From IMG/VR virus record IMGVR_UViG_3300033512_000452, positions 1-64,000 of that record: DNA of 64,000 bases; one strand, 5' to 3'. Source of the stretch: a virus. The notes beneath the pieces are model-generated. The model did not search any database, was not told the origin of the DNA, and saw only the letters and a list, made by a program, of their open reading frames with translations. Made by a program: the position numbers and the translations under genes. This document shows positions 405 through 60,932 of this stretch, piece after piece. Numbering within the stretch: position 1 is the stretch's first letter; the number at the start of each line of letters is the position of its first letter.

Positions 405-510
405 ACTCCCTCAAAAACAATCCCCCGACAGGGATCAATAAACAAAACTCCTTATCTGTGTCGACGACGGTAACACGGATTCGCTTACGGTATTTCCGGC
501 GCCGGAAACG
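405..510 (-). repeat. conserved leader repeat, copy A (homologous to 3950-4060)
   Basis: Shares the blocks CTCCCT, CCCCCGAYAGGGATCAAYAAACAA and CACGGATTYGCTTACGG with copy B. Lies 5' of the minus-strand gene that starts at 350. Confidence 0.7.
493..508. repeat. exact copy of 16-bp palindrome TTTCCGGCGCCGGAAA
   Basis: Read directly from the sequence. Intergenic, in the leader of the gene starting at 350. Confidence 0.95.
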
Positions 511-558
511 CAAAACACGGCACTTTTATCTGTACCTGAGTCGATACACCTAAAGCGC

Positions 559-599
559 AAAAAAGCCCGCCAGAATCAATCGTGGAGTCACTGGCGGGC
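559..599 (-). terminator. rho-independent terminator-like hairpin in the leader (minus strand)
   Basis: Stem GCCCGCCAG (565-573) pairs with CTGGCGGGC (591-599). A6 on plus (559-564) gives a U-run after the hairpin on the minus strand. Confidence 0.6.
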
Positions 600-961
600 A
601 ATGGTGCGCCGTTATCAAAATCGCCGCTAAGCATATTCTTCTGTATGTACGAATGCATATAAAACTATGGTTTTCCTCCCTTTCAAGTTAGTTTTGTTTG
701 TGGCAATATCTTTTCTTTTGTGCTAAATAAAACTCCATGCAATATCTATTTTACGACTGTAACGGAAATTTTACAAGAAAATGCAATACTACTTATAGGA
801 TTATTGATCGGGTTGGATAGAGAAAAGAAATCTTTGATTTTCATACAATGTAACTGGGTTATTGCCTGGAGATTTAGAATATCAGTGTCTGTAAGAGGTC
901 TTGTGATGTGGAAGCAACAGTAAAAGAGGTTTTGTGGGTGAAAACATGGAGATATTAGTAC

Positions 962-1176
962 GGATGAGTGATTATGCGAGGAGAATTAAGTTTAGATCGG
1001 ATATCCTGTGGTACAAGAATCTTGATTGGGAAGACTTTATAACGAATGATAGATGATATGATGGATGAGAGATAATGCCTGGAGAGATTGTAGGGGATGA
1101 GAGATAGTGATAGAATGAGTGCTGGTGAGTGGATGAGAGATTGTGATTGGATGAGTACCAGATAGTGGATGAGAGA
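962..1176. repeat. iteron-like array of direct repeats, GGATGAGAGATWRTG
   Basis: Copies start at 962 (GGATGAGTGATTATG), 1063, 1095 and 1131. Partial copies at 1149 and 1167. All in the same orientation in a region with no credible ORF. Confidence 0.75.
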
Positions 1177-1308
1177 GTACCGGTGGATATTAGACGCATT
1201 CGCAATCAAACGTGCACGAAAGCGAATAAATGAGAACGAATGTGAATAAACACGAAAGAAAATGATGTAATAAACATAGTACTTTAGTACCGAAAGTGCG
1301 AAAAAGAC

Positions 1309-1337
1309 TTGACTTTCGTATTTTTATTTGTTACACT
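1309..1337 (+). promoter_or_regulatory. sigma70/sigmaA-like promoter (TTGACT-17 bp-TACACT with TGn)
   Basis: -35 at 1309-1314, -10 at 1332-1337, TG at 1329-1330. No ORF of 60 aa or more downstream until 1955. Confidence 0.45.
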
Positions 1338-1901
1338 TGGTGGAGGGTGGGTGAATACGGAAAGAATATTGTAAACGTTTTGCTCCGAGTGGCTTTGGTA
1401 TGAGAATGAAAGATTCTAAGTTTGATAGAGAAACACTGAGCAACCCGGTTTGAATGTAAGTAAATGTATGTACAAAGCGTGAGTTATTCAATCCATCCTA
1501 TAGAGATAACTTAGTTAGATACAAAGCAACCGTTTCATTTTTATTTGTTGATGGGGGGATTTCTATCTTTTTTTTCCCTCCTAGCTATAACCCCCGCGCC
1601 GAACAGATCTCTCTTTTTTTTATAGACACTCCCTATTTCTTTTGTATATCTTCCGCAAACAAGACTATTCAGACCTGAATTGACTTATACGCCGGACTTT
1701 CCTGAATCCGCGGAGCGTTTATCTGGTTGGCTTTAGTCGTCTGGACTGGACTGGACGCCGTTCGGGTAGTCTTGGGTAAGCGCGTTTGGAGTAGCCGATG
1801 CGCGCGGAGCGTAGCGGAGTGCGCGGTAAATCAAGCAACAACGAACGAGGGAGCGTAGCGACCATCGTGAGTTGTTGCGTTCCATCCTGTAAGCGTGAAA
1901 C

Positions 1902-1942
1902 AAAAAAAAGACCCTATCCTGTATTTCTACAAGATAGAGTCT
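1902..1942 (-). terminator. rho-independent terminator ending the small-ORF operon
   Basis: Stem GACCCTATC (1910-1918) pairs with GATAGAGTC (1933-1941) with one mismatch. A8 on plus gives U8 after the hairpin on minus. Lies just after the stop at 1955. Confidence 0.75.
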
Positions 1943-1954
1943 TTCGGTATTAGG

Positions 1955-2230: not shown

Positions 2231-2281
2231 TGTATTGCTCCTTATTGGCGGTCTAACCTCCTACCGCCAGGGCTTTGGGAT
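2231..2281 (-). promoter_or_regulatory. inter-ORF hairpin element B1 (SD-like loop AGGAGGUUAG)
   Basis: Stem GGCGGT (2247-2252) pairs with ACCGCC (2263-2268). Flanks are conserved with B2: CTTATTG...CTAACCNCCT...AGGGCTT. Confidence 0.6.
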
Positions 2282-3073: not shown

Positions 3074-3095
3074 TTCACCTTCCTTATTCAAATGA

Positions 3096-3174
3096 GTGTT
3101 TGATTGTCGGTAGTTCCCTGTCATGGAGTCGAACCATGCTAGCACCCGCCCGTGCCAGGGAAGTTAGTTGTTAG
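3096..3174 (-). ncRNA. tRNA-like structured repeat R2
   Basis: Minus-strand RNA: UCCCUG / GCAC-GGGCGG-GUGC / CAUGG-UUCGACU-CCAUG / CAGGGA. The T-stem covaries with R1 and R3. Confidence 0.65.
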
Positions 3175-3401
3175 TACGCCCGGATCCGCTTGAGATCCTC
3201 GGCTAGTAGCGCCTCTACTCGCTCGAGGTCCGGCGTTTCGTCCAGGAAGCTCTCGGAGCAAACCTTCACGAATCCACCTGGATACTCTACGGTCACTACT
3301 GCGTCCTTGCCGTAGTATTGGAGGTCCCAAGACATGAGACCGTTGAACGGCACTGTGATTGGATCACCGCCGACGGAATACACTAAGTTGTAGTTGAACA
3401 T
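3171..3401 (-). CDS. small hypothetical protein (76 aa)
   Basis: ORF track entry; RBS AAUAAGGAGAGUC upstream of the ATG at 3401. Confidence 0.7.
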   Translation of the reverse strand: MFNYNLVYSVGGDPITVPFNGLMSWDLQYYGKDAVVTVEYPGGFVKVCSESFLDETPDLERVEALLAEDLKRIRAY

Positions 3402-3420
3402 GACTCTCCTTATTGACCTG

Positions 3421-3502
3421 AATGTTTGATTGCCGATAGTCCCCTGCTGCGGAGTCGAACCGCAAGAGCACCCGTCTGTGCACAGGGGAGTTAGTTGATT
3501 AG
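3421..3502 (-). ncRNA. tRNA-like structured repeat R3
   Basis: Minus-strand RNA: CCCCUGU / GCAC-AGACGG-GUGC / UGCGG-UUCGACU-CCGCA / GCAGGGG. This gives a 7-bp acceptor-like stem and a canonical T-loop. Confidence 0.7.
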
Positions 3503-4389: not shown

Positions 4390-5190
4390 TTGACTGTTAC
4401 TTTACTGGCTTACGGGGATGCGCACAGCGGATCATCGGTAGGGTTGTGTCCCCCGAATATCAAAGAAGATGATGGGCAAAAAATTAAATACTCGATTTCA
4501 CAGAGATGGATCTGGGATAACTGGCTCCGAATGATCGAGAAAGCAAAGTCATTTAACAATGACCTCATATCGTTATCGAATGGTGACTCCCTGGAAGGAA
4601 ACACCAACAACAAATCGTATCAGGTCGTTACGTCAAATCCGGTGACTTTGATCAAGATTGGCGTGGAAAGCCATGGTCTTGTTCGAAGGATATCCAAGCG
4701 GATGTATATGACTCGCGGGACCGGCTTTCATTCCGGGAAGAGCGGGAATCTAGAAGAGCTCCTCGCAACATCCCTGGCGTGTGAAAAGACGGACGAGGGG
4801 ATGTTCTCTGCTTATCAGTGGAATTTGATGGTGGAGGGGGTTACGATTGAAGCCACCCACCACACAACGATGAGTGGAATCCCATGGATGAAAGAAGAAG
4901 CGGCGGATAAGTTGGCGGCAAAGATTATGTTTGCGAATGCAAAAGCAGGAGAAACCCCGCCTGATATCGTAATTCGCAGCCACGTCCACCGTTGGAGTGA
5001 TTCGTATGATAAGTACAAGACCAGGGTGATCATCCTTCCCTGTTGGTGTTTACCTACTGAGCATATCCATAAAGTGGCGCCAAGTTCAATCGCTGAAATT
5101 GGCGCTGTTTTTATTCACATTGACGGAAAGAAATTCGAGGTAGAGAAATTTAAAGTAATCCCAAAGAGGAAGATATGGCGAAAGATATAA
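4390..5190 (+). CDS. calcineurin-like metallophosphoesterase
   Basis: TTG start after AAGGAGGT. Motifs seen: GDAHSG (DxH), NGDSLEG (GD), RGTGFH, and RSHVHRW (GHxH-like). Confidence 0.75.
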   Translation: MTVTLLAYGDAHSGSSVGLCPPNIKEDDGQKIKYSISQRWIWDNWLRMIEKAKSFNNDLISLSNGDSLEGNTNNKSYQVVTSNPVTLIKIGVESHGLVRRISKRMYMTRGTGFHSGKSGNLEELLATSLACEKTDEGMFSAYQWNLMVEGVTIEATHHTTMSGIPWMKEEAADKLAAKIMFANAKAGETPPDIVIRSHVHRWSDSYDKYKTRVIILPCWCLPTEHIHKVAPSSIAEIGAVFIHIDGKKFEVEKFKVIPKRKIWRKI

Positions 5191-5426
5191 CAACAGAACA
5201 GATCCTTTTGGATCTTGAACGGTACATTAAACCTGTGGACAACATCCTTCCCGGCGATATTACTGTAGAAGATATCATGGTTCATTTTAACGTTAGGAAT
5301 AGGGACACCGCCTATAATTACATGAAACAAATTGCTGACAGTGGGTCGTACGATCTCGTTAAGGTTTACCAAAACAGCAGGGTGAAAAACGCCCTCCGAA
5401 AAAACATGAAGGACACCCATGTTTAA
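5175..5426 (+). CDS. small hypothetical protein (83 aa), possibly DNA-binding
   Basis: ORF track entry; overlaps both neighbours, which suggests translational coupling. Confidence 0.6.
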   Translation: MAKDITTEQILLDLERYIKPVDNILPGDITVEDIMVHFNVRNRDTAYNYMKQIADSGSYDLVKVYQNSRVKNALRKNMKDTHV

Positions 5427-6302: not shown

Positions 6303-6640
6303 TCAGCTAACATCGCGCCTTTTATCAAGAATGAATTGGAGTTCATTGGCTACAATAAGTTGTAATTTGGTTGTAAGAGGCGCATGACGCAGGACTTTAA
6401 TAATCTCCTCGATAATAAGTCTTTCGCTTTCCTGCTCGATGAGATGTTGCTTTAAATAGACCGTTCTATCCAGGTCCTCTTGATACATATCCTTTAAAGC
6501 ATTCCGGCCATTAAAAGGTTGTAAGGGTGTCCCGTACTCTTTGACTCCCCGATCGTTCCGTTCTTGCATGTCCATCATCACTTGGGCCCACACTGGTTTT
6601 TCTTCGTTAACTATTGGGTTGGGTTCTTTGTCGATATCCA
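6303..6640 (-). CDS. hypothetical protein; possibly an all-alpha NTP pyrophosphohydrolase-like fold
   Basis: Start moved to the ATG at 6640 (MDIDKEP...), after AGAGGAGAAAUA. The segment KEYGTPLQPFNGRNALKDMYQEDLDRTVYL is vaguely MazG/dimeric-dUTPase-like; the functional call is weak. Confidence 0.6.
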
Positions 6641-6659
6641 TTATTTCTCCTCTATTGCG

Positions 6660-6675
6660 TTTCCGGCGCCGGAAA
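6660..6675. repeat. exact copy of the 16-bp palindrome
   Basis: 20 nt upstream of the ATG at 6640, abutting its RBS. Confidence 0.95.
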
Positions 6676-6676
6676 T

Positions 6677-6707
6677 AAAAAACACTCACAATAAGTGAGT
6701 GTTTTTT
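6677..6707. terminator. bidirectional terminator-like hairpin
   Basis: AAAAAACACTCAC-AATAA-GTGAGTGTTTTTT. Confidence 0.7.
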
Positions 6708-6766
6708 ACTGGAAGGAACTTAACTTGTTACAATTGTACCACAATTATAGTTTTTGTCAACAAAAG

Positions 6767-9683: not shown

Positions 9684-9887
9684 ATGGTCTATACATATAC
9701 GACCCGCAAAGAAGTAACTGATGTTTACGACCACGTAATATCTGATCTGGCTAATCGCGCAGAAGGGAATATTTGCTCCAGGATGGTTGGGGTTAATAAA
9801 CTATGGGACGCGTATGAAGCAGCTCTGGATATCGCCGTGTGGTTGCGTAAAACAATCCTAGAGGGGGATCATGGGAATTCTGAATGA
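9684..9887 (+). CDS. hypothetical protein (small terminase role not demonstrable)
   Basis: ORF track entry, immediately upstream of and overlapping terL. Confidence 0.55.
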   Translation: MVYTYTTRKEVTDVYDHVISDLANRAEGNICSRMVGVNKLWDAYEAALDIAVWLRKTILEGDHGNSE

Positions 9888-11406
9888 AGCAGACATGTCT
9901 ATTCTACCTATGATTAATAAGGGAAGATTAGATATTGCGACCTCTTGGTATCTTCAGGGATTTGAACCGCTTTGGTATCAGTTCGCCTGGCATTACGCTC
10001 CTCAAAAAGCGACCTCATTCATCGCCGGAATCGCGGCAGGGAAAACAGCAACCTCAGCGGCGTCAGTGCTGATGCAGTGTTTAGCTATCCCTTATTACCG
10101 CGCCCTCCACACGAGCGTTACAGCAAAACAAGCAGAGTTGGCGTTTGATATGGCAAATGGCTGGATTGAAGATAATCCAAGACTTGTTCATTTGATTAAA
10201 AATATCTCTCTTCGCCCTTACCCTGTTATAGAGTTTCAGAATTATGCGCAGTGGGATTTTCGTACAGCTGGAATTGACGCCAGGTACATCAGGGGGTCCG
10301 AATACGATCGGATCGTTATGGATGAAGCGGGGCTTGACCCTCACGGAGAAGTGATTAAAGTCCTCCGTGGTCGTTTGCGTGGAACTCGTCCATACTCCCC
10401 CACCGGATCCGCCAGAGTCCCGAGGGAAGCGCGGTTGGATGTTATTACGTCCCCAACAGATGCTCCATGGCTGAGTGAGCGGTTTTACAAGGGATGGAAA
10501 GATAATTCCCAAGCCGAATTAGATAAATACTTCTCTATTAGAGCAACGACTTACGACAACACCTACCTTCTACCAGAACAAATCGCCATGATGGAATCTG
10601 AATTAACAGAGGAAGACGTGGCTGTTGAAATGATGGGGGAATTCCCTGATTACGGCATGTCTTTCTTTCCGAAACGTCACTTGGATGCTATCACAGATAC
10701 TGGCAGATACCTTTACGACGAGGTTTATAATGCTGTCAATCCCGAGTCTGGCGCGTCAAAACCAAACTACGATATCACAGAACACCCGCGACATGGGATC
10801 ACTCGTTACGAAAAACCATTCGACCCGAACGCCTATTACATTATGGCTGGCGATCCTGGGCAAGATGATCCACCAAAACGTAATGCTGGTGTGATTTTTG
10901 TGGCCGACATAGCCAAAAAACCATTTGAGATCGTATTCTTCCATTGGGTTTCCGGGCACGGCAAGTACGACCCTTTCCTCACGTCTTATAAATATGCCAT
11001 TGAGAAATATAACCCGAAGTACCGCGGGATTGACTCCACTGCCGGACAAAAAGGTATCCAAGAGCTTGCTTTTGAAAGAAATGACATCGAGACGGACGGA
11101 ATTAGTTTTGGTGGAAAGAAAGACGCCATGCTTAACAGTCTGTCTTTGCTTGTCTCGAATCAAGAAATTGTTTGGCCGCCAATTAAAGGCTTAATAAAAC
11201 AGATGTCTGTGTACACCAAACAAGACGACAGTAAACTAGCTCAAGATATCGTTATGACACTGGCTATGCTTGCATCATTTTGCAGGTATTCTCCAGTAGC
11301 TAACTTCAACAAAGAGCGAGAAGAAATATCTTTTGCTATAGCCCAGAGAATCAGCAGGCGCAATAGGACGTCAAGATTGTCATCGAATAGGAGATTTAAA
11401 CGTTGA
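9871..11406 (+). CDS. terL: terminase large subunit
   Basis: Walker A AGIAAGKT, Walker B RIVMDEAG, C-terminal acidic nuclease-like motifs (GDPGQDD, IDSTAGQKG). Size and position fit. Confidence 0.85.
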   Translation: MGILNEADMSILPMINKGRLDIATSWYLQGFEPLWYQFAWHYAPQKATSFIAGIAAGKTATSAASVLMQCLAIPYYRALHTSVTAKQAELAFDMANGWIEDNPRLVHLIKNISLRPYPVIEFQNYAQWDFRTAGIDARYIRGSEYDRIVMDEAGLDPHGEVIKVLRGRLRGTRPYSPTGSARVPREARLDVITSPTDAPWLSERFYKGWKDNSQAELDKYFSIRATTYDNTYLLPEQIAMMESELTEEDVAVEMMGEFPDYGMSFFPKRHLDAITDTGRYLYDEVYNAVNPESGASKPNYDITEHPRHGITRYEKPFDPNAYYIMAGDPGQDDPPKRNAGVIFVADIAKKPFEIVFFHWVSGHGKYDPFLTSYKYAIEKYNPKYRGIDSTAGQKGIQELAFERNDIETDGISFGGKKDAMLNSLSLLVSNQEIVWPPIKGLIKQMSVYTKQDDSKLAQDIVMTLAMLASFCRYSPVANFNKEREEISFAIAQRISRRNRTSRLSSNRRFKR

Positions 11407-12504: not shown

Positions 12505-14052
12505 ATGGACACTTTTAACTGGACAACACCTTCGATTAACGAACTCCCTGATTGGGCGTCTGATATCAGCCAGGTTAGCGCAGAGATGCGCAATGCTTGG
12601 TTAGCTGAAACGGCAGCCCGCACTCGGTATAACAAGTATTTTACCGGCAAGGTCTTCGAAGAGAAGGTGAATTCAAATGACCCAGAAAACGACACGCTAC
12701 TTTATCCGGTCGGGATGAATTTAGCTAAGATGATCTGTATCACCCTGGCCGATTCGATGTTTGGCGAATGGACGGAAGATATCGTAACTTTTGAGCCCAA
12801 CCAGGACCTTGAAGACATTAACACTGATGATAAAAAAGCATCAAAGTTACTGCAAAACATTATTCGATACAGCAATATCAATTCAAAGTTATGGGAAATT
12901 GAATTAGAAAGAAATATCTACGGTGGCGGGGTGCTCCAGGTATCTCCGTCATTTACAACGCCGGGACATGTCATCTGGTCGCGTGTTGATACTGGATCTT
13001 TCTTCCCCATCTGGTCCCCTGATGATCAAGACGATCTCCTTGAGGTTTACGTTGTCATCCCGATGACACGAGACCAAGCAAGATTGAAGTGGCACATCGA
13101 AACAGACAAAGATGTCATTTATCGCATTGAACACTGGACAAAGGATATCTACGAGAATCACATTAACGGAATTCGCGTTGAGGCCTACTCTGGCGTAAAT
13201 CCGTGGAGAGTTGTTCCTTTTGTTTATATTCCTCGCTTTCGCGTGCATAAATGGTGGGGTGAGAGTGCAATTGATGACGTAATCGCCACTCAAGACGAAC
13301 TCAACATGAGATTAGCTGATGTTGGTGAAGCAGTAAACTACAATACCCACCCGGTTCGCTGGGGTGTGAATCTCCCAAAATCATTCAAGCCAGAAAACTT
13401 CCCGGTCGGTCCGAACGTTTTCTGGGATCTTGGACGCGTTATTGGCGACAGTCCAAAACCTGAATTAGGAATTTTGGAAGCGAAGAACCCCACCCCACAA
13501 GGGACTTTCGATTACATCGAATTCCTCTACAACTGGTCTAGGGTGAGTGCTTTCACTCCTGCTGTTTCTTTAGGGGATGATGATGGCGGCGGACAGAGAT
13601 CTGGAATTACTCTTGAGATTCGAATGGCTCCACTAATTCGGTCTATCCGTCGAAGCCGGTCTTATCTCTCTACTGGGCTGATGAAAGCCGCTCGAATTAC
13701 GGCGGCGATTTTAGAGCAGAAAGAGTTTTCGGATACTCCGAAGCGCGCTTTGCAATCAATTATTGATGGCCGTTTAGTTCCAAAATTCGCAAACATTCTG
13801 CCACGCGATCAGGCTGCGTTAGTTGATGAAGTTACAAAGCGATTCTCCACAACACCCCCGTCGATCAGTCTGGAGACGGCAGTTAATAAGTTGGGTGATG
13901 GGACAAATGAAGTGAATAGGATTGTTGCCATGGTCGGCAATGACAAACTGTACAGAAAGGTCGAACCCGTTTCCGACGCCGGAAATCCCCCTGGTTTAGA
14001 TGGTAAGAATGGTCCGACTATTAATCAAAAAACTGATGAAGGAGAAAAGTAG
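12505..14052 (+). CDS. portal protein (by position and size)
   Basis: 515 aa, the first large ORF after terL. No diagnostic motif recognised by eye. Confidence 0.65.
   Translation: MDTFNWTTPSINELPDWASDISQVSAEMRNAWLAETAARTRYNKYFTGKVFEEKVNSNDPENDTLLYPVGMNLAKMICITLADSMFGEWTEDIVTFEPNQDLEDINTDDKKASKLLQNIIRYSNINSKLWEIELERNIYGGGVLQVSPSFTTPGHVIWSRVDTGSFFPIWSPDDQDDLLEVYVVIPMTRDQARLKWHIETDKDVIYRIEHWTKDIYENHINGIRVEAYSGVNPWRVVPFVYIPRFRVHKWWGESAIDDVIATQDELNMRLADVGEAVNYNTHPVRWGVNLPKSFKPENFPVGPNVFWDLGRVIGDSPKPELGILEAKNPTPQGTFDYIEFLYNWSRVSAFTPAVSLGDDDGGGQRSGITLEIRMAPLIRSIRRSRSYLSTGLMKAARITAAILEQKEFSDTPKRALQSIIDGRLVPKFANILPRDQAALVDEVTKRFSTTPPSISLETAVNKLGDGTNEVNRIVAMVGNDKLYRKVEPVSDAGNPPGLDGKNGPTINQKTDEGEK
13970..13985. 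repeat. one-mismatch palindrome variant TTTCCGACGCCGGAAA
   Basis: Inside the portal ORF, read as SDAGN. Identical to the variant at 45431. Confidence 0.85.
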
Positions 14053-19587: not shown

Positions 19588-19700
19588 TGAAAAAGTACAA
19601 CCAAGATTGGGAATTATTATCCATCGTCATCGCTTTTGCGCTCATCTTTGCGATGCAACTCGGATTATGGTGGCAGATGCTGATTGGAGAATCGAAATGA
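19587..19700 (+). CDS. 37-aa single-transmembrane peptide
   Basis: Own translation MKKYNQDWELLSIVIAFALIFAMQLGLWWQMLIGESK. ATGA overlaps with both neighbours. Confidence 0.45.
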   Translation: MKKYNQDWELLSIVIAFALIFAMQLGLWWQMLIGESK

Positions 19701-41949: not shown

Positions 41950-42722
41950 ACAGCCTCCTTGACTGTTGCAAACTCACAGTCTTGAACAGAACAATAACGG
42001 CAGAGCCAGCTATCTTCCGGCGCCGGTGGGCAATTCGTCTCAATCGCAGTTTTTAACGTGTGGCTTCTTTCGCTCAAATCGGCATCGATGTCAATATGAG
42101 GTACCTTCATCTGAACTGCTCCAAGATGTCCGTTTGGATATTGCCTAAAACAAGTAGGGCAAGTCGTAACACCGTCAATAATCCGAAGTGTGTTCTTGCA
42201 TTTTGAGCACTTGGTCGGGCCGCTCATGTCGATATATTGGATAAACATATCCTTTACGTTTCCGCCATCACCCTCGAGGAGCTTACGGTAATAATTAACC
42301 TGCCCTTCATGGGACCCATACGGCAAGTTATCCTTCGATAACCAGCGGGTTGTCTTCCAATCAATCAGAGTTTCGCCGTCAAAGTAATCCACCTTGCCGA
42401 CAATGTCTCCGTTTGATACGGGGATTTCAGAGGATTCGTTCGTGTCCTCGATGTATTTATGGACAGCGTTTCCGATAAATAACACCAGAAGATCGTGGAT
42501 ATAAGGCGGTTCTGGGTTGACCTTAGAAAAGTAAGATTTTCTTAAACAGGACGTGATATCCGTAACATGGATCTCACCGGTGCGATCCTCGCTGCCAGCA
42601 AGCATCGCTTTTAATAGGGGGTACGAATACCCACATGGGGGCGTTTTGCTCGTTACAGCGCATTCTAGGCACGTTTTAGAGTCAATTACACCGTACTTGT
42701 CGCCGCTACATTTGATATTCAT
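41946..42722 (-). CDS. PD-(D/E)xK nuclease, Cas4/RecB-like, with Cys cluster and inserted zinc ribbon
   Basis: GNAVHKYIE; VDYF...LIDWKTT (D...DxK); QVNYY (QxxxY). N-terminal Cys residues plus C-terminal CRYCSVQDC. Insert CSKCKN...CPTC. Confidence 0.7.
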   Translation of the reverse strand: MNIKCSGDKYGVIDSKTCLECAVTSKTPPCGYSYPLLKAMLAGSEDRTGEIHVTDITSCLRKSYFSKVNPEPPYIHDLLVLFIGNAVHKYIEDTNESSEIPVSNGDIVGKVDYFDGETLIDWKTTRWLSKDNLPYGSHEGQVNYYRKLLEGDGGNVKDMFIQYIDMSGPTKCSKCKNTLRIIDGVTTCPTCFRQYPNGHLGAVQMKVPHIDIDADLSERSHTLKTAIETNCPPAPEDSWLCRYCSVQDCEFATVKEAV

Positions 42723-44407: not shown

Positions 44408-45214
44408 TTAAATAAATTCAGTTACTTCCTCGATAAATCCTGCCGGAATGTCGGATGGAGATATGTCGAAGTGTTTTCCAATAATTCGCTGAAACATAAT
44501 CCACTGGTCCTCGTCAAGTTTGGCGATAACGTAGTGATAATCATCGCTCACAAATGTAATTGCATCGATATTTGGCGTTCTCTCTGGATTGAGATGCTGT
44601 CGTACCATGCGATTTGTTCCTGTCGATGCGATCTCCATAATCCTTTCAACTGCGGACTTTACACGATCGTCGCCCCCAATCTCATCAACCTCTTCGAGGA
44701 TCTTGCTTACAGAATCCCGAACGGAGCTTGATTTGCTGTCCTCTCCGGAAATCAACATACGAAGGTGAGGAAGTACCTCACTCATGTTTGCTCTGCTGAT
44801 TTGCCAGATTTCATCAGCGCTCATGCTCAAAGACGATTGTAGATAAGGGAAGACGTATCCATATAATGCCGTAATGTTGGATAGCTGAGTTATAGATATC
44901 CCGACGTCCTGAGCCATCTCTTCCAACGTGCGATACTTATTTGGGTGCACAGAGTAGAGCCCGAGCCGGTCAATTCCCTCAATGATTTTTCCTCTCAGAA
45001 GTGTGTTTGAGAACTCTATCCTCGATGTTGCTTTGAGTTTTTCCACTTGAATAATGGCCTTCTGTTCAAGTTCTGAAAAACCATCCAAATCATCAAGGCG
45101 CCCCAACACCCAATTCTCAATTGCAATTTCTGATTTTGCGATATCCGCTAAAACTGACGAGTCACTAATTACCATGTCCAAGATGAGCCTCCATAATTCT
45201 TGAATATCCGTCAC
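44408..45214 (-). CDS. hypothetical protein (replication-module; start uncertain)
   Basis: ORF track entry. GTG at 45214 lacks an RBS; the alternative ATG at 45175 has GGAGG 12 nt upstream. Confidence 0.55.
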   Translation of the reverse strand: MTDIQELWRLILDMVISDSSVLADIAKSEIAIENWVLGRLDDLDGFSELEQKAIIQVEKLKATSRIEFSNTLLRGKIIEGIDRLGLYSVHPNKYRTLEEMAQDVGISITQLSNITALYGYVFPYLQSSLSMSADEIWQISRANMSEVLPHLRMLISGEDSKSSSVRDSVSKILEEVDEIGGDDRVKSAVERIMEIASTGTNRMVRQHLNPERTPNIDAITFVSDDYHYVIAKLDEDQWIMFQRIIGKHFDISPSDIPAGFIEEVTEFI

Positions 45215-45638
45215 GATCGACTACAAGTACCGAAGTGTCAACTTTAGTGCCTGGGCGATGAAGAACAATAGCTGTGATGCCGTCAGGCACATATATCTTC
45301 GTCCACTCTTCCATATGGTAGAAATAGTCGTCGACAATTACCGATGATTTCGTTGGCTTTATTCCATGCGGGAAATTGTTCTCTTTGAGAACCTGTAATT
45401 TGATCCCGAAGAGATGTTCGTTGGTGACGATTTCCGACGCCGGAAACAAATACCAACATTTTGGGATTTCCTTTCGAGACTTCACGTCAACGACGAGTTT
45501 AAATTCGTTTACGTCAATGTCAGGTCCAGCCCTACCGAGTATCGGAATACGTTTTACTTCCGGGTACCCTCTTTGTCCAAACCACAAAGACAGGTGCTCC
45601 GCTACCTTGCGTTCTATCGAGCGAGGTCTTGATAACAT
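45165..45638 (-). CDS. PD-(D/E)xK endonuclease, Hjc/resolvase-like candidate
   Basis: ERKVAEHL...GPDIDV...LVVDVKSRK fits the E...D...(D/E)xK arrangement. Confidence 0.5.
   Translation of the reverse strand: MLSRPRSIERKVAEHLSLWFGQRGYPEVKRIPILGRAGPDIDVNEFKLVVDVKSRKEIPKCWYLFPASEIVTNEHLFGIKLQVLKENNFPHGIKPTKSSVIVDDYFYHMEEWTKIYVPDGITAIVLHRPGTKVDTSVLVVDRDGYSRIMEAHLGHGN
45431..45446. repeat. one-mismatch palindrome variant TTTCCGACGCCGGAAA
   Basis: Inside the ORF at 45165-45638. Confidence 0.85.
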
Positions 45639-45717
45639 AACTTTTTCCTTATTTTATTGCAATAAAAATGAAATTTTGTTGCACATCGTTGCAATACTAG
45701 CGGAATTTCAAAACCCA

Positions 45718-45746
45718 TTGACATATTGTTATTAACACGATACAAT
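45718..45746 (+). promoter_or_regulatory. consensus promoter TTGACA-17 bp-TACAAT
   Basis: -35 at 45718-45723 and -10 at 45741-45746. Flanked by GTTGCAC (about 45686) and its inverse GTGCAAC (about 45774). Confidence 0.7.
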
Positions 45747-45902
45747 TGGCTCGTTAAGTTTAATTAGTAAGCTAGTGCAACATTGTTACTATTGTATCAC
45801 TATAATTACATTTCTGCATTAGCACGATATTAATAAAACGTTAACGTTACTTTCGCGTCGCGGGTGTTACTATACTACTATACAAAAGGAGGAAACAACA
45901 AC

Positions 45903-46268
45903 ATGGGAGATCTGTTACTTAACTTAACGAAAAGAAAAATGGACGAAGAACACCTATCACTTCGAAGAGCTTCTGATCAGATTGGAATCTCGCACATGGC
46001 ATTAAAGCGATTCGTCAGTAAAGATGGTGGTGTTGGGATCGACAAAATTATCTTGATTTCGAATTGGGTTGGCATAGAACCCGCTGTTGCACTTGAGTTG
46101 CGTCGAGATGAAATCGACTCTATATCTACGGTTTTGCGTAGGTACCCAGAACTGACAGAAGTGTTTAGTGATCTACTTAAGCAAGTAGAGTGCGGAGCGT
46201 TGGATCCCAGAATTATTGAGGACTTAGCATCTTACACTAAATTTAAAATTAATAATATGAAAAAATAG
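45903..46268 (+). CDS. HTH transcriptional regulator (Cro/CI-type)
   Basis: ATG at 45903 after GGAGG. LSLRRASDQIGISHMALKRFV is an HTH. Opposite strand to its neighbours. Confidence 0.65.
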   Translation: MGDLLLNLTKRKMDEEHLSLRRASDQIGISHMALKRFVSKDGGVGIDKIILISNWVGIEPAVALELRRDEIDSISTVLRRYPELTEVFSDLLKQVECGALDPRIIEDLASYTKFKINNMKK

Positions 46269-48935: not shown

Positions 48936-48980
48936 AAAAAGGCGCGGCGGGACTCGAACCCGCCTGCTGCCATCTCGCCT
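48936..48980 (-). terminator. tRNA-like minihelix (acceptor-like stem + T-arm) followed by a U-run
   Basis: Minus-strand RNA: AGGCGAG-AUGGCAGCAG-GCGGG-UUCGAGU-CCCGC-CGCGCCU-UUUUU. Confidence 0.55.
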
Positions 48981-51314: not shown

Positions 51315-51330
51315 TTTCCGGCGCCGGAAA
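51315..51330. repeat. exact copy of the 16-bp palindrome
   Basis: Lies between the int terminator and the gene starting at 51274. Confidence 0.95.
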
Positions 51331-51385: not shown

Positions 51386-52516
51386 TTACTCAACAGGTAT
51401 TCTTTTTAGGAATTCGAATTCAACAGGCGTGACCAATTCAGTCATCTTGCGAGTTAAATCGTCCTGTCCTGTGGCGATCAGATGACCATAGATGTCCATT
51501 GTGATACTTGGCTTTGAGTGTCCAAGCGTTCTGGAGATCGTGGTAATTGATGCGCCGGTATTGATCATGTGAGACGCTGCGGTATGGCGAAGATCATGGA
51601 AGCGGATCTTCTTAACCATCGCTGTTTTTAATTCTTCCTTGAATTCAGCAAGCAGAGCGGAGTGGTCCATTGGCGTTCCGATCGTTGTGCAGAACACCAA
51701 ACCAAAATCTTTCCACCTGTTTGCAAAGAAAGCCTTTTCGTAATTCTGGCGTTCTTTATGCTCCCTTAGGATTTGAATCGTCTGCTCCAGTATCCTTATG
51801 GTTCTGATTCCAGATTTTGTTTTCGGCGCCACGAAGGATTGCAATCCATGTTCTAATTGGCGCTGAATTAAAATCGTCCCTCTCTTGAAGTTGATATCAG
51901 TCCACATCAGACCTAACAACTCACCCTGCCTCATACCGGTTAATATCGCCAGGTGATAAAGCGCCTTGTTGCGAGATTCTTTGGTTGAGATAAGGAATTG
52001 CATAATCTCATCTTCTTCGAGGATGTTCATTTCGCCGTGCTCGTAAGAGGGCTTATCCACGTAATTTGTTGGATTAATAGGAATAAGCCCTCTTTTCGTG
52101 GCGTCCTCCAGGCAGATATGCAGAACTTGATGGATATACTTTCTCGTGCGAGCTCCGACTTCCAGTGAGTCGTAATAATCTGATATTGTGTCTATTTTCA
52201 ATTCAGACAGTTTGTAACCACCGATATCCGGCACGATATAATCATCGACGTAATGCTGGTATGATTTTGCTGTGCTTTCTCTGATCGCCTGCCTGTGGGC
52301 TTTCATCCATGACGCGGCGAATTCAGCTAAGGTAATCTTTGACGTATTAAAGGTTAATCCTCTGACCTGCTGCCCTTTAATTTCTTTGAGCCAATTGCGA
52401 GCGTCCGTTCTCGTCTCGAAAACCTTCGTTATCCTTGCGCCGTCAATGTATATCTGTGCCCTGAACATATCGCGCTGTTTGAAAATTGATCCTTCCCCTT
52501 CGTTCTTCTGTCTCAT
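51386..52516 (-). CDS. int: tyrosine recombinase / phage integrase
   Basis: C-terminal RFHDLRHTAASHMI...LGHSKPSITMDIYGHL gives R, HxxR, H and Y. N-terminal SAM-like domain. Confidence 0.9.
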   Translation of the reverse strand: MRQKNEGEGSIFKQRDMFRAQIYIDGARITKVFETRTDARNWLKEIKGQQVRGLTFNTSKITLAEFAASWMKAHRQAIRESTAKSYQHYVDDYIVPDIGGYKLSELKIDTISDYYDSLEVGARTRKYIHQVLHICLEDATKRGLIPINPTNYVDKPSYEHGEMNILEEDEIMQFLISTKESRNKALYHLAILTGMRQGELLGLMWTDINFKRGTILIQRQLEHGLQSFVAPKTKSGIRTIRILEQTIQILREHKERQNYEKAFFANRWKDFGLVFCTTIGTPMDHSALLAEFKEELKTAMVKKIRFHDLRHTAASHMINTGASITTISRTLGHSKPSITMDIYGHLIATGQDDLTRKMTELVTPVEFEFLKRIPVE

Positions 52517-56755: not shown

Positions 56756-56950
56756 TCACACTTCCTCTCTTACAAACATTCCGAATAACTCGGCTAAATT
56801 GCGTTCGTTTTCTGTGACTGGCATGTTTCGGCTTTTTGAGGCGATATCCTTTGCCACTAAAAAAGCCAGATCGCGGGTGTCTTTCAGGAACTGAACGTCT
56901 CGCCCATCAACGGCGTCCTCTTTGAGAACGTGACTGTATGTACTCATCAT
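56756..56950 (-). CDS. hypothetical protein
   Basis: ORF track entry; RBS GGAGU upstream. Confidence 0.55.
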   Translation of the reverse strand: MMSTYSHVLKEDAVDGRDVQFLKDTRDLAFLVAKDIASKSRNMPVTENERNLAELFGMFVREEV

Positions 56951-56955: not shown

Positions 56956-56971
56956 CTTTCCGGCGCCGGAA
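56956..56971. repeat. exact copy of the 16-bp palindrome
   Basis: Abuts the RBS of the gene starting at 56950. Lies just after the stop of 56974-57231. Confidence 0.95.
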
Positions 56972-56973
56972 AT

Positions 56974-57231
56974 CTACCAGCTAATCCTTGTCGATCCACC
57001 AAGATATATCACTGTGAATTTCTTTCGGCGAAGATACTCTGCCGCCTCCAGGTCGATTTCTTTTTGAATGATTACGCACACCTTGGCTTCCTGGGATAAT
57101 TTTGTGATTTCTTTTTCAATGTCTTTGATAAAATCGGAGTTTTCTATTTTCGCATCTAACTCTTTTATTTTTTCGTAACTAGCGTCATTAACAATTGAAC
57201 GAGCCGTACCTGCATCAATCATATTTCCCAT
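56974..57231 (-). CDS. hypothetical protein
   Basis: ORF track entry. Confidence 0.55.
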   Translation of the reverse strand: MGNMIDAGTARSIVNDASYEKIKELDAKIENSDFIKDIEKEITKLSQEAKVCVIIQKEIDLEAAEYLRRKKFTVIYLGGSTRISW

Positions 57232-57343: not shown

Positions 57344-57961
57344 TTAAACGGCGTAAAAGGCTTCTTTTACGGATTTAAATGCGTTACCAAGAATGATCTC
57401 CGGGTCGCCGGTTTTAAATTCATTCTTGAAAATCAAGGTAGTCGGGAGCCTTTCGACGTTAAAATCAACCGGCTCTTTCTCGACGTCAACATACTCAAAC
57501 GGAACGCCCTCTTTCTCCATGGCCGCCTTGAGCGTATTGCAGGGAGAACAGGCTTTTGTGCCATATACAATCACTTTCTTCATAAATTCTATTTCCTTTA
57601 AACTTTGATGTTTTGGATTTTTCGTAAACGGTGAAGGAGATTGCTCCCCAACAACGATGTAATTCCTTCCGTTGCCATTCAGGACAGTTCCCTCTGAAAA
57701 GGACGCATACTTGAGCATAAAAGTTATGTCTGATGAGTAGAACTCGCTGCAATCCCCCCAATCGTCCGAGGAAGAAACGATTCGATACGATTCCTCCGAC
57801 GAGTTTGGTGTGTCTTTCCATTCTGCGAACTCCTCTTTTCGAGTCTTGTTGTAAGCTCTGAGTTGGTTTTGTCTGTGAACAACAAAGCAATCTCCGTCGT
57901 GGGCAGATTGCCTTCTTCTTGGGTTTTCGATTTCTTTACCACAAATTACGCACAGCGTCAT
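57344..57961 (-). CDS. zinc-finger N-terminal region fused (or coupled) to an NrdH/glutaredoxin-like domain
   Basis: C-terminal MKKVIVYGTKACSPCNTLKAAMEKEGVPFEYVDV carries a CxxC. The internal ATG near 57583 has AAGGA upstream, so it could be a separate start. Confidence 0.6.
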   Translation of the reverse strand: MTLCVICGKEIENPRRRQSAHDGDCFVVHRQNQLRAYNKTRKEEFAEWKDTPNSSEESYRIVSSSDDWGDCSEFYSSDITFMLKYASFSEGTVLNGNGRNYIVVGEQSPSPFTKNPKHQSLKEIEFMKKVIVYGTKACSPCNTLKAAMEKEGVPFEYVDVEKEPVDFNVERLPTTLIFKNEFKTGDPEIILGNAFKSVKEAFYAV

Positions 57962-58862
57962 TTAACTCGTCCTTTGCTGATGGTCTGGCGAGCAGCCATT
58001 CATCAACGTCTTTGAATTCTTTTGGCGGAAAGATCACCTTTGCTCTTAAAATCTTCCCGCGCTGTATTGCTGATCTGGTTCCAACCTCATCGTTGTCGCC
58101 GATGACGACGTTCTTAGAGAACTCCAATGCGTTCGTGACAAGGTAATCCAAATTACCTGCTTCTCCGTTCGTTGGCGCACAGGTAAGCATCCCTGTAAAT
58201 CCCTCTACAACCATCGCGGCGATCTCACCTTTGCAGATGATGACCGTATCTGTGGTGTGATAAACCTCATCATGGTTGAATAAAGATGACCTGGAGCCCT
58301 GCACGGACCAGTATCGAAATCTCTTTCCGTTCGATTTCAGATTTCGCAACTTAATTGTCATAAGACTTCCGCAAGTGAAGGCTGGCAAACTCAATAAATA
58401 TTCATTCCCTTCTTTCTGTGGTTTGTTTTCCAGCATCCTCGAGCAGGATCCTAATTTGTATTTATCGATCAGACTGTCTGTGATTCCCCGTGAGTGGCAA
58501 TACTCTCGGATGTTGTCTGTCATTGGTGTAAAGTCTGACCATGCGTAATCAGATAATTTCGGAGTCTTCGGTATGTCGACAATCGGGTTGACTTCGATAC
58601 TGCTGTTCCAACTAAGATTCTCGGCGGCTTGCTTTCTGTGCCCTCTGCCGTTATACCCAGGTATGGTTTGATATCCAACTAAATCGATTACGTCCCCCTG
58701 AATATTGCAAACGTGGCAGCGCCACTTCTGAATACCATCTTTCATGTAAATTGACAGGGACGGATGACTGTCTTCGTGAAAAGGGCATCGTGCCATCTTC
58801 CCTTTTTCAAGGTGAAGCACATCCTCTATCCGGTATAGTCTGCGTATATCTTCGACGTCCAT
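57936..58862 (-). CDS. dnaG: DNA primase, DnaG-like
   Basis: Start at the ATG at 58862 after GGAG. CHC2 zinc finger CPFHEDSHPSLS...CHVC. TOPRIM-like VIICKGEIAA...VIGDNDEVG. Confidence 0.8.
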   Translation of the reverse strand: MDVEDIRRLYRIEDVLHLEKGKMARCPFHEDSHPSLSIYMKDGIQKWRCHVCNIQGDVIDLVGYQTIPGYNGRGHRKQAAENLSWNSSIEVNPIVDIPKTPKLSDYAWSDFTPMTDNIREYCHSRGITDSLIDKYKLGSCSRMLENKPQKEGNEYLLSLPAFTCGSLMTIKLRNLKSNGKRFRYWSVQGSRSSLFNHDEVYHTTDTVIICKGEIAAMVVEGFTGMLTCAPTNGEAGNLDYLVTNALEFSKNVVIGDNDEVGTRSAIQRGKILRAKVIFPPKEFKDVDEWLLARPSAKDELNDAVRNLW

Positions 58863-58931
58863 ATAACTCCGCGGGAGGGCAGTGAGAAGCTGCCCTCCCA
58901 AGCAAATAAGGAGAGAAATGAATAAGACCAA

Positions 58932-58960
58932 ATTGTAACATTGTTGATACCCTCTGTCAA
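58932..58960 (-). promoter_or_regulatory. consensus promoter TTGACA-17 bp-TACAAT (leftward)
   Basis: -35 is the reverse complement of 58955-58960; -10 is the reverse complement of 58932-58937, with TGn upstream. Confidence 0.7.
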
Positions 58961-58964
58961 TCGT

Positions 58965-58994
58965 TTGACACAAACGTATAAAGTGTGTTACAAT
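58965..58994 (+). promoter_or_regulatory. consensus promoter TTGACA-18 bp-TACAAT (rightward), probably giving a leaderless mRNA
   Basis: -35 at 58965-58970 and -10 at 58989-58994 with TGT upstream. The ATG at 59002 is 8 nt after the -10 and has no SD. Confidence 0.7.
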
Positions 58995-59001
58995 ACCCTC
59001 T

Positions 59002-59775
59002 ATGGGAAGAAAAGGAAACAGGATTAACCCCGACGCAAAAGTACAGCTCGATGGATTAGACAATCCATACGTTGAGCGTGTTGACTCCAGCGGTGGTCAC
59101 AGGCTTGAATTTAACAACCGAGAAAGGTATCTCGTAAAGGTTCAGAAAGCCCTCGGCTTATTCGTTGAACAGGCTCTATCACTCCCCGACGCCGTCAGGC
59201 AAACTGACCCCAACATGAAGTTGAGCGATGTGTTGAATTTCGTTGAACGTGAAGGGTTGACCGGTGAGATTTACGATCGAATCGTCTCGCTCATGCTGGA
59301 CGTTGATCATTCTCATCGTGTTGCGGATATCGCCAAAGAAGTCGGTATGAGTATCCCTGTACTTAAGCGGCTCATTGCCACGAAAGACTTTCAGGAGTCA
59401 TACAATCGTTTCTTCTTCTCGACCGTTTCCGACCCGCGCATCAAAGCCTTGCAGGAAGGGCTCTCCGATATGACCCCGGAGATCTGGAGAACGTACAAGG
59501 ATTGTCTGTCTCCTGATGCGCCTTACAGCGTGCGGGCTAAGATGGCGATGTATCTGGGTGAAATGATCGGCGTGCGCCCACAGAAAGCAACCGAGTCCAA
59601 CTCCGCTGAACTTGCTGAGTTCCTGGCGCGCAAAGGAATCTCCGCTGATAATCTTCAAATCATCCAGAACCAGAACATTGTTAATATCCCCGAAGGGTAT
59701 GCGAAAGCCCTTCAGGGATTTAAAGAAGAGATTGAGATTATCGAGGTGGTTGAGCCAAAGGCAGATCAAACCTAG
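59002..59775 (+). CDS. DNA-binding regulator candidate (possible lysogeny repressor)
   Basis: HTH-like VADIAKEVGMSIPVLKRLIA. Divergent from the primase operon. The leaderless arrangement resembles lambda cI/PRM. Confidence 0.5.
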   Translation: MGRKGNRINPDAKVQLDGLDNPYVERVDSSGGHRLEFNNRERYLVKVQKALGLFVEQALSLPDAVRQTDPNMKLSDVLNFVEREGLTGEIYDRIVSLMLDVDHSHRVADIAKEVGMSIPVLKRLIATKDFQESYNRFFFSTVSDPRIKALQEGLSDMTPEIWRTYKDCLSPDAPYSVRAKMAMYLGEMIGVRPQKATESNSAELAEFLARKGISADNLQIIQNQNIVNIPEGYAKALQGFKEEIEIIEVVEPKADQT

Positions 59776-60166
59776 CGCCGCACTTGTCGCATTCAAGATC
59801 CCCGCCACCATCTCTGACATGGTGGTTTTTGTTATTGCAGACCGGGCAGGTCCAATGCGCCATTAATTTGAATGACGGCGTGTTGATGATCTCCACCTTT
59901 ACCTTTAGGTTCTTTGGCTGAAGGTATTGCAGTTTTACACAGAAGGCGCCGTTGGAGAAATCCGTGATCTTGCCTTCCGGTTCCAGTTTTCCCTCTTTGA
60001 CGTAGCGATTGAAATCATCCGAAAACTCCGTGTAGGATTTGGCTTTATCGATGATAGATCGTTCGATCCCTGGGATTTCATTTGCGTCAATCATGGTTTC
60101 GAAGACGATCATGTTTTCACGCAGTGATGAATGCGCAGTTAAATTTACTGAGGGGTTTGAACTCAT
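59738..60166 (-). CDS. hypothetical protein with C-terminal zinc ribbon
   Basis: CPVCNN...CDKCG. RBS AAGGAGAG upstream. Confidence 0.6.
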   Translation of the reverse strand: MSSNPSVNLTAHSSLRENMIVFETMIDANEIPGIERSIIDKAKSYTEFSDDFNRYVKEGKLEPEGKITDFSNGAFCVKLQYLQPKNLKVKVEIINTPSFKLMAHWTCPVCNNKNHHVRDGGGDLECDKCGARFDLPLAQPPR

Positions 60167-60512
60167 GGTTGCACTCTCCTTTTACGATTAGTTCCAGGGC
60201 GATTTTAGCCGCCCGGACTGGCAGGTCGTTGATGTAAACCGGCGCTCCCAGCGACGAGTCGATGTAAGACCAGACATATTTTATATCGGGGTATTGCTTA
60301 CTGAACTCAACCGGTACAGCAAAGTCAATTTTTCCATTTGCATAACTGTCCCAAAGATCTCCTCCAACGAATTTCAGAAGATCAATCCATGTGAGACTGC
60401 CGGTGTAAAACCAAAGCCCGCCAACAACAACACACTGAGATTTGTAGTGATCCGGTGTTTCCGCTTCAGTCATTACGTCAATACAGACGTTGTTGTGTTT
60501 AACGGCTATCAT
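60117..60512 (-). CDS. hypothetical protein
   Basis: ORF track entry. Confidence 0.55.
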   Translation of the reverse strand: MIAVKHNNVCIDVMTEAETPDHYKSQCVVVGGLWFYTGSLTWIDLLKFVGGDLWDSYANGKIDFAVPVEFSKQYPDIKYVWSYIDSSLGAPVYINDLPVRAAKIALELIVKGECNHEFKPLSKFNCAFITA

Positions 60513-60932
60513 TTACCCTCCTGCGAGTGCCGGTTTCCGGTGTCGGAAATCGAATTTGTTGCGGGTTTTTCGTTTAACGATCTCGAGTTGCTCTGGCGTG
60601 AGCGTGATTTTCAACCCTGTTGCGTCAACATCAATCACGATTGATTGAATGAGTTCCTTGTGTAATGCCCGGCGTAATTCTGCGTTTCGTGTTCGATGAG
60701 CCATCAGGAAGAGATTTTCCATCTCCCCTTTATTTTCCCATCGCAAAGCGTGGCGCAACTCCGGCGTTATGTCGTAGAGGTTGCTGAGGTTAGACTCAAT
60801 GGCGTGTTCAGGATCAATACCCCACTCTTCCGCTTTATCAGCAGCGGCCAGCAGCCACTTTTTGTAAGAAAGGAACACGTCGTCCTTTCTAGTTACGTTT
60901 TCGATTTTTTCTCTGAATTTATCCCAAGTCAT
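60513..60932 (-). CDS. hypothetical protein
   Basis: Start at the ATG at 60932 after GGGAGGAAGC. Confidence 0.55.
   Translation of the reverse strand: MTWDKFREKIENVTRKDDVFLSYKKWLLAAADKAEEWGIDPEHAIESNLSNLYDITPELRHALRWENKGEMENLFLMAHRTRNAELRRALHKELIQSIVIDVDATGLKITLTPEQLEIVKRKTRNKFDFRHRKPALAGG
60534..60549. repeat. two-mismatch palindrome variant TTTCCGGTGTCGGAAA
   Basis: Near the 3' end of the ORF at 60513-60932. Confidence 0.6.

Follow-up and report, generated by a model that had tools for sequence, protein, structure and literature searches.

The 64,000-nucleotide stretch of viral DNA analysed here (positions 1 to 64,000 of IMG/VR record IMGVR_UViG_3300033512_000452, hereafter called the window) contains a short palindrome, TTTCCG-N4-CGGAAA, which is dispersed over coding and intergenic DNA alike. 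The motif is real and conserved throughout the phage family to which the window belongs. Between lineages, its two arms change symmetrically. The sites lack an orientation, occur at regular distances and accumulate at gene boundaries. These properties suggest that a protein reads the motif as duplex DNA. The best explanation, which we hold tentatively, is that the sites are duplex-DNA recognition sites for a two-fold-symmetric phage protein that has co-evolved with the motif, and that they control transcription through gene boundaries. The motif is not a classical promoter operator since most of the sites lie away from promoters.

The exact 16-mer TTTCCGGCGCCGGAAA is present in six copies in the window (starts 493, 6660, 19892, 26436, 51315 and 56957), while it did not occur in any of 100 dinucleotide-preserving shuffles. 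The latter control had been proposed in a first-pass annotation of the window, whose claim that the repeat is far above chance was borne out. Five of the six start positions given there were right; the last one (56956) was off by one. Allowing up to three mismatches, four further true relatives were detected, which are the four near copies already listed in that annotation. They carry the substitutions G7>A (13970 and 45431), G9>A (41802) or both C8>T and C10>T (60534), i.e. all five substitutions are transitions within the central four bases. A regular-expression scan of the window revealed exactly ten sites TTTCCG-N4-CGGAAA, with none expected, and not a single copy with a mismatch in the arms, which are both invariant. 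As the flanking bases are a purine (5′) and a pyrimidine (3′) in 19 of 20 half-sites, the site can be described as an 18-bp dyad, RTTTCCGGCGCCGGAAAY (the site sequence was also written out as GTTTCCGGCGCCGGAAAT). Four of the ten sites are intergenic and six are located in coding DNA. Copies of the latter group are read in all three codon phases (FPAPE, FPVPE and FPASE; VSDAGN and VSGAGN; DFRHRK), which agrees with the different frames noticed before.

Homologues of the window's portal protein (30-57% identity) delineate a large metagenomic phage family with several contigs of 60-80 kb. Around these homologues, 68 loci of up to 21 kb were collected, 62 of which are non-redundant (947 kb, 42-62% GC). 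The non-redundant loci harbor 106 copies of TTCCG-N4-CGGAA, whereas first-order Markov simulations yielded 1.4 copies on average and six at most, corresponding to a roughly 75-fold excess. An alignment of 142 unique TCCG-N4-CGGA copies gave the consensus tTTCCG-RYRY-CGGAAa, in which each central position shows a preference of 86-90% for a purine (R) or a pyrimidine (Y). There are at least eight lineage-specific variant words, all of which keep the dyad symmetry and, except for two short TTCGA forms, the TTC-N8-GAA frame. Some sub-lineages possess symmetric arm variants, e.g. TTCCAGCGCTGGAA, TTCCTGTGCAGGAA and TTCCCCCGGGGGAA. The words of the lineages, mostly in the TTC-N8-GAA frame, are TTTCCAGCGCTGGAAA, TTTCCTGCGCAGGAAA, TTCAGACGCCTGAA, TTTCAGGCGCCTGAAA, TTCTGACGTCAGAA and TTCCCCCGGGGGAA, the shorter ones TTCGACGTCGAA and TTTCGACGYCGAAA. 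The inner arms of the relatives comprise TTCCG, TTCCAG, TTCCTG, TTCAG, TTCCCC and TTCGA. Lineages with different words fill the same slots, namely immediately behind TerL and immediately on either side of the portal gene. Within genes, sites at orthologous positions were identified in the adaptor (residue ~125 in five or six loci), the portal (residues 489-495 in five loci, one of which is the window) and the major capsid protein (residue 83 in three loci). Both the motif and its positions are conserved in related phages, a test that the first-pass annotation had named. It had also supposed that the nucleic acid, and not the protein, is the target of selection. This is supported by the three codon phases, the conservation over a wide GC range (42-62%), the symmetric change of the arms and the orthologous sites.

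One relative, IMG/VR 3300002702_000060, was walked, and 54 of its 66 kb were recovered. This sequence contains 26 sites, some of them in an early region that has no protein in common with the early region of the window. As, in addition, no homologues of the window DnaB with more than 31% identity were found anywhere, it can be concluded that the motif persists through complete replacement of the early module. One site of the walked relative is located 48 nt from the 3′ end of an integrase-like gene.

According to open reading frame (ORF) calls, which are crude for the relatives, 37 of 191 sites are intergenic compared to 14.6 expected (~2.5-fold, P=1.5e-7), and about 80% of the sites lie within called ORFs. 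Enrichment was restricted to the region upstream of start codons (37 versus 14 within 50 nt, 38 versus 24 at 50-150 nt) and was not detected downstream of them. Many sites fill the stretch from a stop codon to the following Shine-Dalgarno (SD) sequence, from which they are 0-12 nt away. On the other hand, about a quarter of the sites are more than 300 nt distant from any start, including a perfect window copy in the tape-measure gene. The sites keep a distance from one another. Each of the 14 loci that have at least four sites shows a spacing more regular than random, and normalised gaps below 0.2 make up 2.5% as opposed to 16% expected. Fisher's method over the 14 per-locus P values gives roughly 1e-5 by our own arithmetic. 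The coefficient of variation of the spacing is 0.49 in the window (P=0.025) and 0.65 in the walked relative (P=0.017). Sense-oriented flanks and centres showed no significant asymmetry, and the sites have no orientation with respect to transcription. In two relatives, sites occur in pairs whose centres are 22 bp (L160, 14869-14902) and 43 bp (L190, 203-257) apart, about two and four helical turns, respectively; such pairs would be compatible with cooperative binding to a single face of the helix. An integrase core site was ruled out by the spacer of only 4 bp and the many copies, and promoter readings of the extracytoplasmic function (ECF) sigma or -10-like type by the lack of a fixed downstream element.

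Taken together, the tests speak for a two-fold-symmetric reader of duplex DNA, though none of them is a proof. Readings as an RNA hairpin, a host-factor site, a restriction site or a pure recombination linker are less likely. The motif might be an intercistronic mRNA hairpin (UUCCG-loop-CGGAA) 5′ of ribosome-binding sites that stabilises or processes polycistronic transcripts or tunes translation initiation. This idea, which we consider quite unlikely, would explain the many sites between stop codons and SD sequences, the exclusive enrichment upstream of start codons and the joint change of both arms between lineages. However, the 18-mer RNA folds weakly (-6.7 kcal/mol, z -1.9) and the hairpin was missing from three of five native-context folds. 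A U-run following the hairpin was not found, Rfam gave no match, and the sites qualify neither as intrinsic terminators nor as structured RNAs. An RNA helix should favour wobble-compatible variants, so the absence of a G-U bias among near-sites with a single transition in one arm (nine compatible in the sense RNA, eleven incompatible) counts against it. Moreover, it is the arm sequence itself, beyond mere complementarity, that is conserved at 42-62% GC. Flanks and centre lack strand asymmetry, the window's R...Y flanks would produce an A-C or A-G pair in four or five transcripts, and the sites far from any start, as in the tape-measure gene, do not fit either. The hairpin beside ribosome-binding sites that had initially been suggested is weakened by these data. 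A short linker or selfish repeat that is kept as a cause or a product of recombination between related phages at gene boundaries, without a dedicated binder, is very unlikely. It agrees with the position of sites at module and gene boundaries and with the entirely different early modules of genomes sharing the motif, and in the Cluster O mycobacteriophages recombination between repeats explains insertions and deletions (PMC4351075). Yet dyad symmetry and a conserved RYRY centre are not required in a recombination linker, the fact that all sites of a lineage change together and symmetrically implies a trans-acting reader, and neither a mobile-element structure nor target duplications were found in the flanks. 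Least probable of all, and hardly to be expected, is a host-factor site, a generic host repeat or a restriction/methylation target. The window version does contain GGCGCC, GCGC and CCGG, but these words are not conserved in the versions of the relatives, and the motif is strongly enriched instead of being avoided, so that the nuclease or methylase site proposed earlier received no support. There is also a superficial likeness to ParB-family sites, e.g. the Noc site ATTTCCCGGGAAAT. A ParB-like domain was not found in the ~68 window proteins scanned against Pfam, many of which are ORFans; 17 further proteins, including all late-operon ones upstream of the portal, were compared to PHROGs only, and the scan covered neither all small ORFs nor 11 kb of the source contig. 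When a genome collection of 596 Gb was scanned with the exact 16-mer, at least 120 matches were obtained, and those listed were all single matches in unrelated taxa, about chance level. The same scan of IMG/VR revealed only chance-level single matches. Among the matches listed, these results speak against a host repeat, the second test that had been named, in a supportive rather than a final way. Closely related phages have different inner arms, as would not be expected of a conserved host factor.

Of the roles considered in the first-pass annotation, an operator for a dimeric phage regulator fits best, albeit not as a classical promoter operator. A phage-encoded protein with two-fold symmetry, most simply a homodimer, would bind the dispersed duplex sites and co-evolve with the motif across a family of uncultured phages of roughly 65-80 kb. 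The bound sites may act as a roadblock or operator set that controls transcription through gene boundaries, similar to stoperators but dyad-symmetric. That the reader is encoded by the phage rather than by the host is suggested by the fact that the matches listed from the genome collection were single ones in unrelated taxa, and by the persistence of the motif in spite of an unshared early module. The presence of an integrase gene indicates a temperate lifestyle of the window phage. It is this lifestyle, together with the similar site density and the lineage-specific consensus, on which the stoperator-like reading is based.

The motif is not homologous to any of the systems to which it was compared, but it is the same kind of feature, here in an uncultured phage family. 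The KorB operators (OB) on RK2 and the parS and Noc-binding (NBS) sites of ParB-family proteins are short perfect palindromes with T-rich and A-rich outer arms that are read by dimers. Like the present motif, KorB/ParB-family sites are dispersed over a replicon of ~60 kb, partly far from promoters, whereas the half-site spacing differs from parS and NBS. The conserved inverted repeats of phiC31 are a further analogue. With the stoperators of Cluster A phages, which are bound by L5 gp71 and its relatives, the motif shares the many genome-wide sites, mostly away from promoters, and the occurrence in temperate phages (PMC6550527, PMC9283540). Site density is similar as well (26 sites in 54 kb of the walked relative, ten in the 64 kb of the window), and the change of the stoperator consensus between sub-lineages along with the binding protein may have a counterpart in the lineage-specific words. 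The immunity repressor that binds stoperators is also found on an operator within the early lytic promoter. By contrast, stoperators are asymmetric, bound by a monomer and oriented relative to transcription (PMC6550527), while the sites described here are dyad-symmetric and unoriented, and none of them is located in an identified early promoter. The element SPBRE of SPbeta, which is also repeated at several places in a temperate phage genome, had been predicted in silico long before its binder MrpR, an unconventional master repressor resembling tyrosine recombinases, was found (PMC10516654). SPBRE is located in promoter regions of about ten genes, unlike the present sites, which are mostly off promoters and often intragenic. 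In both the window and the walked relative, a site lies ~50 nt beyond the integrase gene, but there is no indication that the integrase binds the sites. Stoperators (PMC6550527, PMC9283540) and SPBRE/MrpR (PMC10516654) are functional precedents for dispersed repressor sites. The closest resemblance is to Corndog and the other Cluster O mycobacteriophages, which carry over 30 copies of the 17-bp dyad TGTTCGGNNNCCGAACA, whose function and binder are unknown (PMC4351075). In both cases, tens of unoriented copies with invariant inverted arms and a variable centre are distributed over a siphophage genome of ~70 kb, at short intergenic, near-gene-end and deep-genic positions. The Cluster O repeats are absent from host genomes, as the present motif may be too. 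The architectures are different (7-3-7 for Cluster O, 5/6-4-5/6 here), the word is not TGTTCGGNNNCCGAACA, and the phages are unrelated. Unlike the Cluster O repeats, the present motif was followed across a deep family of diverse GC content, in which it has several co-varying specificities, and the regularity of its spacing was quantified.

A number of observations weigh against the preferred explanation. An association with sigma70-like promoters was not found, the flanks are not AT-rich and there is no element at a fixed distance. Three of the four intergenic sites of the window follow a terminator, but this pattern does not generalise. The enrichment at gene boundaries, which is based on the crude ORF calls mentioned above, may in part reflect where a word of 14-16 bp is tolerated, and the regular spacing would equally fit a role in replication, packaging or genome marking. 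The authors of the Cluster O study judged a transcriptional role of their very similar repeats unlikely (PMC4351075). A phyletic-profile test did not reveal any protein cluster within 10 kb of the portal that correlated with the presence of the motif. Finally, the binder is still a candidate only; it looks more like a small terminase subunit than like a repressor, and no site is present at the promoter region of its own gene.

This candidate is a helix-turn-helix (HTH) protein of 257 aa encoded at 59002-59775 on the plus strand. Searches of ~85 window proteins against Pfam, PHROG and PDB sequences did not disclose a regulator family. The comparison of the window with the recovered 54 kb of the walked relative showed that only three regulatory or replicative proteins outside the structural and lysis genes are shared: the HTH protein, a primase and, as a weak match, the integrase. 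Also common to both are a dGTP-pyrophosphohydrolase-like protein (6303-6641), a holin and an HNH protein. Of the three HTH proteins to which the first-pass annotation had drawn attention (45903, 59002 and 5175), only the one at 59002 has a homologue in the recovered 54 kb, where none was detected for 45903 and 5175-5426. It is the sole predicted DNA-binding protein outside the structural module for which this is the case (30-32% identity, blastp E=1e-16) and is our leading, still unproven, candidate for the reader. The homologue matches PHROG small-terminase families (E=4e-7), while the window protein itself gave no significant family match. In both phages the gene has the orientation of the late genes, although it is situated inside the early region. 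A single-sequence AlphaFold model was unusable (predicted local distance difference test score, pLDDT, of 39), and scanning IMG/VR with an alignment of the HTH protein returned nothing. This only small-terminase-like gene of the window possesses its own promoter and lies ~15 kb from TerL (9871-11406, plus strand) across the window join and 49 kb from it within the window. Between it and the primase operon, two back-to-back near-consensus promoters were noticed (58932-58994), whose -35 boxes form the palindrome TGTCAATCGTTTGACA and which comprise two copies of the direct repeat ATACCCTCT. Neither these strong promoters nor those at 45718-45746 contain a site. Upstream of the Xre-like gene 45903-46268, at 45640-45900, there are GTTGCA(A/C) and TTGCAAT repeats, which are distinct from the palindrome and probably the own operators of this regulator. 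The alternative candidate reader is the primase, a T7-gp4-like protein in which a CHC2 zinc ribbon is combined with a Toprim domain (57936-58862, minus strand).

The regular spacing, the independence of gene content and the identity of the shared proteins (primase, small-terminase-like HTH protein and integrase) give rise to another view, namely that the motif is not a transcriptional operator at all but a genome-wide signal for a core replication or packaging protein, with selection for a site every few kilobases. We consider this view unlikely. It comes in two forms, each of them with a lower probability. Sites might be replication signals that are read as single-stranded DNA by the T7-gp4-like primase, the spacing of ~2-6 kb representing programmed lagging-strand priming for either fork direction. 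A palindrome would be well suited for that, since a single insertion places the same word on both strands. No other non-structural protein in common with the walked relative is as well conserved as the primase (42-44% identity), the sites are regular and genome-wide, even in unrelated early modules and very long genes, they bear no relation to the direction of transcription, and symmetry is retained when the word changes. What makes priming improbable is that known DnaG/T7-type primases recognise trinucleotides and not 14-16-mers, that sites would not be expected to be enriched upstream of start codons, unless because the word is tolerated there, and that a spacing of ~6 kb as in the window is long for Okazaki fragments. 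In addition, the link between primase and motif relies on one relative. Alternatively, the HTH protein 59002-59775 might be a small terminase subunit that binds the dispersed sites and recruits or guides the terminase. The match of its homologue to small-terminase families points in this direction, as does the fact that no other small terminase candidate adjoins the conserved HNH and TerL genes. Furthermore, the motif goes along with the conserved module of structural and packaging genes, the early modules being different. Such a packaging mark is nevertheless rather improbable because characterised small terminases recognise a single pac or cos region and not 10-30 dispersed dyads, and the sites are nowhere clustered as they would be in such a region. 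The window protein, without a significant family match and with a model of very low confidence, does not strengthen the case. Should one of the two ideas be true, the motif would stand for sequence-programmed lagging-strand priming or for the marking of phage DNA as self for packaging. For the time being, we prefer recognition sites of a dimeric phage regulator acting at gene boundaries.

The individual sites of the window are placed as follows. The positions of the four intergenic copies 5′ of minus-strand genes were confirmed, including the integrase terminator near 51315 and the adjacency to ribosome-binding sites at 6660 and 56957, which the first-pass annotation had reported correctly. 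The exact copy at 493-508 (flanks A...C) precedes the minus-strand ATG at 350 by 144 nt. At 6660-6675, an exact copy (flanks G...T) is part of the 5′ leader of the minus-strand gene 6303-6641, 9 nt from its SD sequence and 1 nt after a terminator-like hairpin (6681-6712), with a strong promoter (6760-6733) upstream. On the minus strand of 6681-6760, a near-consensus promoter (TTGACA-16-TACAAT with a TG motif) is followed, within the leader, by the strong terminator-like hairpin and then by the palindrome and the SD sequence of 6303-6641; the leader may be of the attenuator type. The exact copy at 51315-51330 is found 55 nt past the integrase stop codon and a terminator, 40 nt upstream of the ATG at 51274, and the one at 56957-56972 takes up all the space from the stop codon of gene 56974-57231 to the SD sequence of gene 56756-56950. 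Two exact copies are intragenic: 19892-19907 (flanks A...T) in the plus-strand gene 19697-19999, ~85 nt before the next gene start, and 26436-26451 (flanks G...T) deep within the 3597-aa ORF in tape-measure position (aa 1087). The variant TTTCCGACGCCGGAAA occurs twice, at 13970-13985 in the part of the portal gene for the C-terminal tail (aa 489 of 515), with a site in orthologous position in four relatives, and at 45431-45446 in the minus-strand gene 45165-45638. The variant TTTCCGGCACCGGAAA lies at 41802-41817 in the minus-strand gene 41605-41949, and TTTCCGGTGTCGGAAA at 60534-60549 in the final 12 codons of gene 60513-60944, from where the downstream SD sequence of gene 60117-60512 is 11 nt away. 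A 12-bp core that had been reported at about 42014 turned out to be the partial copy TTCCGGCGCCGG (42015-42026) in the PD-(D/E)XK nuclease gene, the right arm of which is gone, probably by decay. The DnaB gene contains the perfect 14-bp palindrome TTGCGGCGCCGCAA (43964-43977), which looks unrelated and shows, compared to the motif, a symmetric exchange of C and G in either arm; as ~4 palindromes of 14 bp are expected per window, it may be due to chance.

The window represents a siphophage-like phage genome with 44% GC and strong SD sequences. Its late module on the plus strand (~6.9-39.3 kb) encodes a holin, tRNA-Thr, an HNH endonuclease, TerL, the portal, the major capsid protein, the tail tube and the 3597-aa ORF. 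Early genes on the minus strand are located elsewhere, among them those for an AAA_24 ATPase with an intein, the PD-(D/E)XK nuclease, DnaB, dCTP deaminase, the tyrosine integrase (51386-52516), ArdA and the primase. The portal and the DnaB protein match, with 100% identity in each case, proteins of a JGI metagenome contig of 75,232 bp, from which the window derives. Cultured relatives were not found: neither megablast against GenBank phages nor tblastn with TerL gave a match, and portal matches did not exceed 22-31% identity. By tblastn, the portal did not match any mycobacteriophage. Homologues of the window's 466-aa protein belong to unrelated phages with 32% GC that lack the motif, and a metagenome scan with the Bro-N protein disclosed unrelated loci only. 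The AT-rich phages with homologues of the 466-aa protein contain a different kind of repeat, i.e. five copies of an early-promoter cassette of ~65 nt ending with TGGTATAATTATATTATA (L138, 1530-6000). A further viral contig, IMG/VR 3300036967_000647 (L004, 801-816; L009, 3380-3460; 55-59% GC), which is unrelated and has no protein in common with the window, comprises two copies of ATTTCCGGCGCCGGAAAT, each 13-15 nt from the partner word ATTTCTTCCGCCGG, and a third site, TTTCCGGCACCGGAAT. The gene of the AAA_24 (Sak4-like) ATPase (39782-41608, minus strand) is interrupted by a LAGLIDADG intein. The 3597-aa ORF (23177-33970, plus strand) follows the tube and chaperone genes and did not match Pfam or PHROG; if it is the tape measure, a very long tail is implied. 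The position of this giant ORF after tube and chaperone genes also ruled out the idea of N4-like hairpin promoters. A repeat of 75-135 nt is present in three copies (2545-2679, 3081-3155 and 3368-3502) with 76-80% identity. On the minus strand, it has a core resembling a tRNA T-arm (GGTCCGAATCC / GGTTCGACTCC) without being called by ARAGORN or Rfam, and could be a tRNA-derived or small RNA family. Another sequence, GGCGGGTTCGAGTCCCGCC (48946-48964, minus strand), looks like an isolated tRNA T-arm, though no tRNA was called and the scan flagged it as terminator-like.

Dispersed dyad repeats are known from a few cultured phages, and only some of them have been explained. The motif described here represents an ancient, co-evolving trait of a large phage group that is known from metagenomes only. 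It survives the full turnover of early genes and a GC range of 20 percentage points. Its eight or more specificity variants are a natural experiment by which the reader protein may be found through covariation. The family also allows the function of genome-wide sites, be it silencing, priming or packaging, to be tested, a question that the repeats of the Cluster O phages raise as well.

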